A stretch of DNA of 64,000 bases from a virus (Duplodnaviria > Caudoviricetes). The notes below the pieces were generated by a model. The model did not search any database, was not told the DNA's origin, and saw only the letters and a program-made list of their open reading frames with translations. Shown here piece by piece: positions 40,218-41,167 of this stretch (within the stretch, counting starts at the first letter, position 1; each line of letters starts with the position of its first letter). The stretch covers positions 32,001 through 96,000 of IMG/VR virus record IMGVR_UViG_3300043447_000710, one strand, 5' to 3'. The position numbers were made by a program, and so were the translations under genes.

Positions 40218-40303
40218 CTTTAAAGATTCTATCAGAAAACATGCCGAGAACCCTGTGCTTTCAAGCCAGGGATGAAGGCTAGCCGCAGCTTTTAAGCTGC
40301 CAG

Positions 40304-40465
40304 TCACTTACCATTCTGCTGCTCGATATATCTTCGCACAATTTCAGTGGACACATTGCCGACACTCCCTACAAAATAGCTGGGTGTCCACATACAAGGC
40401 AGCTTCAAAAGTTGGGGAAACTCTTCTCTTAACAGCTTGGCAGATCGTCCTTTAACGCGACGCAT
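40304..40465 (-). pseudogene. tnpA: C-terminal fragment of Y1 transposase
   Basis: MRRVKGRSAKLLREEFPQLLKLPCMWTPSYFVGSVGNVSTEIVRRYIEQQNGK*; the HUH half is missing. Confidence 0.88.
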
Positions 40466-40502
40466 GATATAATGTGTATAGTCCTTGACCCATTTGCTGA
40501 CA

Positions 40503-41045
40503 ATGTGTTTAGAAGCTTGGAAACCTGTAATGAATTGGGAATTAAGCCACGAAGTTTCAAATTTTGGCAGAGTACGAACTTTAACAAAACAAAAGGTTTT
40601 AAAGTCTCAATTAGTCGAGGGGTATCCTTCGGTTTCACTTTGTAGTAATGGAAAGAAAAAGCGAGCTTACGTGCATCACTTGGTAGCCTTAGCATTTATT
40701 GGATTACCTGCAAGTAAAATTGGAGTTAAAAGCGGAGAGTCCACTATTAATCACAAAGATTTTAATAAGGAAAATAATATACCTGAAAATCTAGAATGGT
40801 TGACTTGTACAGAGAATTATCTTCATGCCTACGCTAACGGCAAAGTTGAGGTAAGAGCAGGAACACAACTTACTCAATCAAAACTAGACCCCTGCAAAGT
40901 CAAAAGAATAAGAGAAAGACTTGCCGCAGGTGAAAGTCCAGCGTTAGTCGCCAGAGATTATGGGGTAGTAAAAGGAACGATTTATGCAATCAAAAAGGGC
41001 ATTACTTGGAATGATGGGCGTTTTGACTCGTCCCCAGAAATTTAA
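40503..41045 (+). CDS. NUMOD4-HNH homing-endonuclease-like protein with C-terminal HTH
   Basis: EAWKPV...EVSNFGRVR (NUMOD4), VHHLVA...INHKDFNKENNIPENLEWLT...EN (HNH), LVARDYGVVKGTIYAIKKGITW (HTH); TGATATAAT at 40465-40473. Confidence 0.9.
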   Translation: MCLEAWKPVMNWELSHEVSNFGRVRTLTKQKVLKSQLVEGYPSVSLCSNGKKKRAYVHHLVALAFIGLPASKIGVKSGESTINHKDFNKENNIPENLEWLTCTENYLHAYANGKVEVRAGTQLTQSKLDPCKVKRIRERLAAGESPALVARDYGVVKGTIYAIKKGITWNDGRFDSSPEI

Positions 41046-41167
41046 ACTCTGGTCAGTTAAACAGCATTGCGTAGCGTCTCTTCAGAGCGCGTAGCATTTC
41101 CGTTTAGAATCCTCGCGCATTCATGCCGAGGAGCAGTCAAAAGTAGTTAGCGTGGTTTGTATAATTA

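Follow-up and report, generated by a model that had tools for sequence, protein, structure and literature searches.

A NUMOD4-HNH nuclease gene of the I-HmuI type at the tnpB position of a rare family of IS200/IS605 elements

The window analyzed here, a stretch of 64,000 nucleotides, comprises bases 32001-96000 of the IMG/VR virus record IMGVR_UViG_3300043447_000710 (record length 152,640 bases, completeness estimated at 83%). The nearest DNA relatives of its insertion sequence (IS) parts are found in plasmids of Nostoc, Planktothrix, Microcystis and Cylindrospermopsis, and therefore the host of this phage is very probably a cyanobacterium. A region of 12 kb (29.4-41.2 kb of the window) is dense in IS200/IS605-family parts, including an element of 908 bp, present as one copy in the phage record, which has an HNH gene at the position of tnpB. 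Its parts are as follows.

40233-41140: the HNH element (908 bp), with IS200/IS605 ends and an HNH gene at the tnpB position
40229-40232, plus strand: CTAT, the target tetranucleotide in the flank, read directly 5′ of the left end
40233-40303, plus strand: left end, with hairpins at 40251-40271 and 40285-40300
40304-40465, minus strand: 3′ remnant of tnpA (53 codons and stop), with the N-terminal part, including the HUH motif, missing
40465-40489, plus strand: putative extended -10 promoter TGATATAAT (40465-40473) and conserved leader block TATAATGT-N3-TAGT-N2-TTGAC
40503-41045, plus strand: intact NUMOD4-HNH-HTH nuclease gene of the I-HmuI type (180 aa), assigned by Pfam, profile and fold
41016-41106, plus strand: remnant of a tnpB 3′ end, also representing the 3′ part of the omega-RNA region, assigned by alignment to real tnpB 3′ ends
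41107-41140, plus strand: right end, consisting of GAAT, the hairpin CCTCG...CGAGG (41111-41131) and TCAA (41137-41140)

The preliminary description of this locus had proposed that both ends closely match those of a tnpB-only element at 29477-30933, and alignment bears this out: the left ends share 89% identity over 70 nt (40237-40306 and 30861-30930, inverted) and the right ends 88% over 34 nt (41100-41133 and 29485-29518). The compensatory change that it had pointed out in the stem of the right-end hairpin (CCTCG/CGAGG in the HNH element versus CCCCG/CGGGG in the tnpB-only element) is present as well, and a comparison of nine related tails contains five hairpin pairs that are changed on both sides. 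Imperfect subterminal hairpins, with no terminal inverted repeats, are found at both ends, as is typical of IS200/IS605. The same CTAT was said to precede both left ends and is indeed found in front of both, while CTAC stands instead before two elements on other contigs, the HNH element of L118 and the full-length IS of L129. The tnpA fragment, correctly placed by the earlier reading in the divergent position, matches positions 69-121 of Pfam Y1_Tnp (the C-terminal third; E 6e-13), aligns with residues 91-141 of the intact TnpA of the window and starts 3 nt from the -10 box. Since tnpA is represented only by such a remnant, with no whole TnpA and a Y1_Tnp match only from position 69, the element is non-autonomous. 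The promoter assigned to the nuclease gene also agrees with its relatives, in which the box is located at the same distance; TGATATAAT is not listed by a simple consensus promoter scan and has no -35 box.

Several other mobile parts are located in the same region.

29477-30933, minus strand: tnpB-only element, following CTAT
30996-31361, minus strand: 3′ fragment of tnpB (C-terminal, with the TNB domain)
35542-36873: IscB gene with the domains RRXRR, HNH and HNH_5
36892-37111: HEARO RNA, from an Rfam scan of 28000-43000
37247-38530: TnpB, divergent from an intact TnpA at 38575-39012
39112-39349, plus strand: orphan tnpB 3′ end and right end, reading DRDVNAGINILQKG..., with a long-loop right end whose TCAA ends at 39349

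The tnpB-only element is inserted, after CTAT, just past the end of the tnpB fragment at 30996-31361, within which a weak match to RAGATH-18 was detected (31038-31093; 30 bits, threshold 44.9 bits). The orphan tnpB 3′ end adjoins the left end of the tnpA-tnpB IS at 37.2-39.1 kb, which points to nested insertions, and in its loop variant it is similar to the right end that the HNH element has on contig L008. In addition, a direct repeat of 103 nt (93% identical; 35392-35494 and 37231-37333) brackets the IscB gene and the HEARO RNA. The repeated sequence corresponds to part of the TnpB gene at 37247-38530, namely its 3′ end and right end. A TnpB right end is thus found on either side of the IscB unit, and the terminal part of the IscB reading frame is itself TnpB-derived sequence. 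A second, unrelated HNH_3 protein (259 aa) is encoded at 43395-44174 on the plus strand, 2.3 kb downstream of the HNH element. Outside the window, two more divergent tnpA-tnpB pairs with intact-looking TnpA are found at 132500-135500 (L123) and 139000-142000 (L124) of the record, and the phage thus has at least three apparently complete IS605-type elements.

The gene at the tnpB position had been described as an intact phage-type NUMOD4-HNH-HTH gene, which is confirmed by domain searches and by a structural model. Both NUMOD4 (35.0 bits, cut-off 23.4) and HNH_3 (27.9 bits, cut-off 24.8) were detected by Pfam, and the model (pLDDT 90.7, with residues 174-180 below 50) ends in a three-helix domain whose helices lie at 130-164. 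One solved protein, I-HmuI (PDB 1u3e), was matched by profile (E 1e-14) and by fold alike (Foldseek E 5e-10 over 177 columns). H84 and N105, which are invariant across the clade described below, align with I-HmuI residues H75 and N96, which have catalytic roles. I-HmuI is a nickase that acts also on DNA carrying its own gene, and the window nuclease has, in the model, the I-HmuI-type fold of a protein-guided DNA nickase. Comparison of the HNH genes across the clade gave dN values of 0.19-0.48 with saturated dS, and L009 and L010, which carry copies of the same element, are distinguished in this gene by a single synonymous base out of 519. Considering this combination of saturated dS with low dN and invariant catalytic residues, the nuclease has been kept by selection and is under long-term purifying selection.

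Homologues of the window nuclease were searched for among 5.8 billion proteins and by a profile search of 1.84 billion representatives, and the flanking DNA was fetched for every homologue. Six proteins with 53-59% amino acid identity were found by the former and one more (45% identity) by the latter, and together with the window protein they make up a clade of eight members whose identities range from 45 to 77%. The family is rare, its members are mostly on short metagenomic contigs and none comes from a complete genome, and at least four of the eight elements are located in phage-like DNA. It had been suggested that the same HNH should be looked for between these ends at other loci, and such elements do exist, as seven further diverged copies at unrelated sites. 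The right-end motif GAATCC-stem-loop-stem-AG..TCAA is found 69-145 nt 3′ of the stop codon in all eight members and is absent from 106 loci, 446,574 bases in total, with more distant homologues of the NUMOD4-HNH type. As for the outgroup, its three closest homologues (40-46% identity) are genes of ordinary phage type that have no IS parts, one of them beside a terminase. In the phylogenetic tree, the seven close members are grouped with support of 98/89, and monophyly of all eight is not rejected (AU p 0.585) and has a slightly better likelihood.

The layout common to the eight elements comprises a two-hairpin left end, a 5′-truncated tnpA on the opposite strand, a TGnTATAAT promoter, the intact NUMOD4-HNH-HTH gene, the last codons of tnpB, the right-end hairpin and TCAA, with the tnpA remnant present in six members and the leader block in seven of the eight. 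Both left-end hairpins are seen in every member with enough upstream sequence; the two-hairpin layout is found in L004, L006, L010, L011 and L012 as well as in L116 (an IS of a Nostoc plasmid in which tnpA and tnpB are divergent) and in the IS of the window at 37-39 kb. The six tnpA remnants range from 118 residues (L118) down to approximately 25 (L012), with the Y1_Tnp match beginning at position 10 in L118 and at position 21 in L010; almost no tnpA is left in L008, and a whole tnpA is present in none of the eight. On contig L004, an ORF of 42 aa (3623-3751, minus strand) with weak matches to ribbon-helix-helix and CopG-antitoxin proteins replaces the tnpA remnant, and a long near-perfect hairpin is located at approximately 3835-3885.

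Further copies were sought in several collections. The phage DNA collection contained no match to the element and the plasmid collection none to the copy of the window, and a query with L011 in the latter matched only the tnpB tails of cyanobacterial plasmids, which were used as references. No clade members were found in representative genomes, and a scan of IMG/VR and of JGI/ENA metagenomes yielded, apart from distant homologues, no member other than L008, which was known already. No pair of near-identical copies whose flanks clearly differ was found among the eight elements, and it is the existence of eight diverged copies that suggests movement as a unit.

The insertion sites of the members have unrelated flanks with nothing in common beyond CTAY. 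On contig L118, the HNH element interrupts a tnpB gene, and deletion in silico of L118:210-1359 (from after CTAC to the A of TCAA) yields one open frame (...DFLQKLSTKLVSENQIIVLEDLNV...) with OrfB_IS605 on its left and the TNB domain on its right. Precise insertion after CTAY, ending with TCAA and without target duplication, is the signature of IS200/IS605. An empty site of this style had been predicted for the window element, namely GATTCTAT followed directly by AAGTAGTTAG, and the restoration of the tnpB frame in L118 supports the style of that prediction; no empty-site allele of the phage locus was found, and the neighboring gene has no relative in IMG/VR. The base directly 5′ of the left hairpin is G in elements with CTAC (L118 and L129) and A in the two window elements with CTAT, a pairing that may fit the guide-tetranucleotide rule of IS608 and to which we attach little weight.

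The region behind the nuclease gene had been taken for a tail of about 95 nt. Its length is indeed 95 nt from the HNH stop codon to the end of TCAA, but its nature has to be corrected, in that the tail and the last 30 nt of the HNH frame form a remnant of the tnpB 3′ end. Between the HNH gene and the right-end hairpin, the sequence can be aligned with the final codons of genuine tnpB genes, for which the references were L116, a Planktothrix IS (L117), the window TnpB at 37 kb and L129, a full-length IS of 1,980 nt on another viral contig that was found by an exact-pattern IMG/VR scan with the tail motif. Window positions 41063-41112 are 88% identical to 3481-3531 of L129, the end of its full-length tnpB, and the arms of the elements are 70-88% identical to L129 and approximately 78% identical to L116. 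The final residues of the window nuclease, read from tnpB-derived sequence, constitute the HNH C-terminal tail, for which the model has low confidence. Two tail types could be distinguished, the long one of which (window and L118) matches L129. In both, the HNH gene is joined to the tnpB remnant at a homologous point of tnpB, just before a conserved small hairpin, and thus a single ancestral HNH-tnpB fusion would be the simplest reading.

Comparison of L118 with L129 reveals how much was replaced: a left arm of 380 nt (70% identical) and a right arm of 125 nt (81%) were kept, whereas approximately 1.4 kb was exchanged for an HNH cassette of 0.6 kb. The segment lost relative to L129 comprises the first approximately 25 codons of tnpA, the intergenic region and tnpB until approximately 30 codons before its stop. 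Across the elements, no more than the last 77-145 nt are left of the tnpB region, with a further internal deletion in the window copy, in which no TnpB (RuvC) domain was detected by Pfam and only the last approximately 90 nt of this region are left. The Rfam scan of 28000-43000 found no family inside 40233-41140, its only HEARO match being the one at 36892-37111. The single-sequence fold of the tail RNA is not unusual (z -1.27), and consensus support beyond the right-end hairpin is weak.

The arms and the cassette of these elements have different histories. The element of L011 shares 81% identity in the left arm and 97% in the right arm with that of L009/L010, whereas the HNH genes are only 61% identical, and identity changes at the promoter and at the stop codon. 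Moreover, the HNH gene of L011 is sister to that of L006 (99/98), yet its right arm is nearer to L009 (97% versus 76%). Since the arms are far more alike than the HNH genes in some elements, the HNH cassette and the IS arms recombine. These patterns imply either that resident, functional IS copies serve to renew the arms or that the cassette passes from one IS backbone to another. Between L010 and L011, the tnpA remnants have a dN of 0.056 and a dS of 1.42, which indicates that they diverged as working genes and not as old pseudogenes. Because no member has a whole tnpA, the elements would depend on transposase supplied in trans. With the tnpA remnant, the three intact TnpAs of the phage share only 47-53% identity, and a cognate transposase was not seen in the record, which is 83% complete; a copy in the host would therefore be a more likely helper than a phage copy.

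The edge of the cassette at the promoter is the most uniform part of the family. In the 25-nt block that begins at the -10 box, conservation is much stronger than in the coding sequence of the HNH (e.g., in the window, L004, L006, L008, L010 and L011), and the -10 box precedes the start codon by 35-41 nt in six of the eight elements. A box similar to this promoter precedes tnpB in the 29-kb element and in L116, but the one in L129 is not similar. The leader block could serve the HTH domain as an operator or be the site that the nuclease recognizes; an exact-pattern IMG/VR scan with it gave four chance matches, without HNH, TnpA or TnpB. In six elements (L118, L010, L011, window, L006 and L012), tnpA homology starts within approximately 10 nt of the -10 box, although the break points fall at five TnpA positions (residues 30, 41/43, 91, 102 and 109). 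This suggests that the tnpA truncations are anchored at the edge of the cassette, which simple, random decay would not explain.

To our knowledge, the accessory nucleases described for IS200/IS605 elements (TnpB, IscB, IsrB and IshB) all belong to the RNA-guided OMEGA lineage. The IS605-group ISs with tnpA and tnpB, such as L129 and L116, share with the HNH element the subterminal hairpins, the divergent tnpA, the TCAA end, insertion 3′ of CTAT or CTAC without duplication and homologous arms, but they carry an RNA-guided TnpB of the RuvC type, whereas the HNH element has an I-HmuI-type HNH, a truncated tnpA and a largely missing omega-RNA region. The tnpB-only elements and PATE-like miniatures also lack a working transposase, retain intact ends and use TnpA in trans, and the unit at 29477-30933, whose ends are near-identical to those of the HNH element, is one of them; what sets the HNH element apart from other non-autonomous derivatives is its cargo, a different, protein-guided nuclease. 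I-HmuI and free-standing phage HNHs resemble the window nuclease in sequence, fold, NUMOD4 sheet, HNH center, C-terminal HTH and occurrence in phage genomes. However, their genes reside in group I introns or in the gaps between conserved genes of phages, and homing is their only means of spread, whereas the clade is found only between transposon ends.

IStrons, in which a group I intron is fused to IS200/IS605 ends, keep TnpB and add a ribozyme; like the HNH element, they are chimeras of a transposon and a homing-type component. Such a chimera is also seen in KolobokP, a eukaryotic and unrelated transposon with a beta-beta-alpha-metal nuclease (PMC13565253). A small HNH accessory protein (~180 aa) between IS200/IS605-type ends is furthermore known from the IscB/IshB group, in which IshB is an HNH-only relative of IscB of approximately 180 aa in the ISC group (PMC11610941), and an IscB element with HEARO RNA lies 3 kb from the HNH element in the same window. 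IscB has HNH/HNH_5 domains and an RRXRR (PLMP) region, whereas the window nuclease has HNH_3 and NUMOD4 and its element contains no HEARO-type RNA. Identity with IshB or IscB was rejected, since RRXRR, the Cas9-type HNH and HEARO RNA are absent and the protein has no similarity to the IscB of the window (best E 0.91). In the full-text literature, no paper was found that links NUMOD4 or I-HmuI-type nucleases with IS605, IS200, TnpA or TnpB. Considering the recurrence in seven further diverged metagenomic copies, the HNH elements between IS605 ends are a real, previously undescribed family and not an accident.

As to how these elements persist, we consider it on balance probable that they are an old, rare, non-autonomous IS200/IS605 family in which a selfish HNH nuclease spreads by homing, with related IS copies as the likeliest substrate and without cutting of empty sites. 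In the ancestor, a phage-type, protein-guided HNH of the I-HmuI type would have replaced almost all of tnpB, and the HNH cassette would have come to stand behind the extended -10 promoter, with the last tnpB codons and the right end kept and the 5′ part of tnpA lost. A cognate Y1 transposase from full-length IS copies in the same cell would move the unit as single-stranded DNA, and recombination would keep the arms matched to resident IS copies. The nuclease would serve the spread of its own cassette: a cut or nick in the DNA of a related IS copy, its likeliest substrate, would be repaired from the HNH-bearing copy via the shared left arm and the tnpB-tail/right-end arm, and empty donor sites would not be acted on. 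Some observations do not sit well with this favored reading, in particular the short right homology arm (77-145 nt), the five tnpA break points that all abut the -10 box, which simple decay leaves unexplained, and the failure to find a cognate TnpA in the record, an empty-site allele or near-identical mobile copies. It is possible, though we rate the chances well below even, that the homing site of the nuclease is the IS200/IS605 element itself, which would make the HNH a parasite of the transposon that converts autonomous ISs to HNH elements. Intact tnpA-tnpB copies would be nicked or cut and the HNH copied in through the shared end arms, after which TnpA from copies that are still intact would bring it to further sites, also in phages; confinement to IS ends, mosaic arms and tnpA break points at the cassette edge would all be accounted for in this way.

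A tentative reading that we nonetheless regard as nearly as likely as the favored one is that the nuclease is only a passenger, with its target elsewhere (for example, in the genes of competing phages), captured once by an ancestral IS whose arms were then passively homogenized by gene conversion. Free-standing NUMOD4-HNH genes are common cargo of phages (the nuclease matches PHROG 59 with E 1e-39, and 160,415 representatives match the profile), half or more of the eight elements are in phage-like DNA, and passive conversion accounts equally well for the mosaic arms; however, no member of the clade lies outside IS ends, even though their divergence has saturated synonymous sites, and the placement of the tnpA break points suggests a process tied to the cassette itself. 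That placement, at five residues and always no more than 10 nt from the -10 box, would be compatible with one fixed site that is damaged again and again, and it might be asked whether the HNH helps transposition by nicking at or near the ends of its element or the promoter edge, which would provide single-stranded DNA for TnpA or trigger repair synthesis. I-HmuI is known to nick DNA that carries its own gene, and the 25-nt leader block is unusually conserved, but the block may be nothing more than a promoter with an operator to which the HTH domain binds, and we consider such a role unlikely.

Less credible still is the role put forward in the preliminary description, which had rightly recognized an IS200/IS605 unit with a NUMOD4-HNH gene in the tnpB slot and supposed that this nuclease, probably protein-guided, was recruited to do the job of TnpB. 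In such a role, the HNH would cut the rejoined empty donor site, guided by protein or by the tail RNA, so that the element is copied back. Its position in the tnpB slot, a promoter like that before tnpB in the 29-kb element and the conserved tail with the right-end hairpin would be in line with this role. On the other hand, the flanks have only CTAY in common, a nuclease of the I-HmuI fold reads double-stranded DNA by protein contacts, and of the tnpB/omega-RNA region only the 3′ end is left, further deleted in the window copy, with an ordinary tail fold and no Rfam match. Moreover, a 2026 review argued on general grounds that protein-guided nucleases cannot serve the restorative homing of a transposon with changing targets, and reported in its section 6.3 that no such case is known (PMC13565253). 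The data agree better with the second alternative of the preliminary description, by which IS ends were acquired by a homing endonuclease. We give hardly any credence to the remaining possibility, a one-off accident by which a phage HNH gene entered a decayed IS in this phage alone. The record does hold a single copy, and it had been proposed that the idea of a transposon should be given up if close HNH homologues never carry IS ends, but all eight members carry them; one-off insertion was rejected on account of eight diverged copies with the same right junction and layout.

A classical homing nuclease has long been kept under selection inside IS200/IS605 ends. This allows two readings: the accessory slot of peel-and-paste elements can be occupied by a nuclease that performs another task, or homing nucleases can exploit transposons in two ways, homing into their copies and being carried by their transposases. 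The system is small (180 aa, approximately 0.9-1.15 kb), and the eight elements and their full-length IS relatives provide defined substrates.

There may be a tendency of the HNH elements to insert into other mobile DNA, as in the case of L118, where the element lies inside tnpB, and L010, where a Cys-rich ORF with a zinc ribbon as in some transposases (902-1162, plus strand) forms the left flank. On contig L009, the right end of the HNH element runs directly into a CRISPR-like array (728-1059; six repeats with a period of 61-63), the first repeat of which is cut by the element and which adjoins a gene with the CRISPR_assoc domain PF08798.
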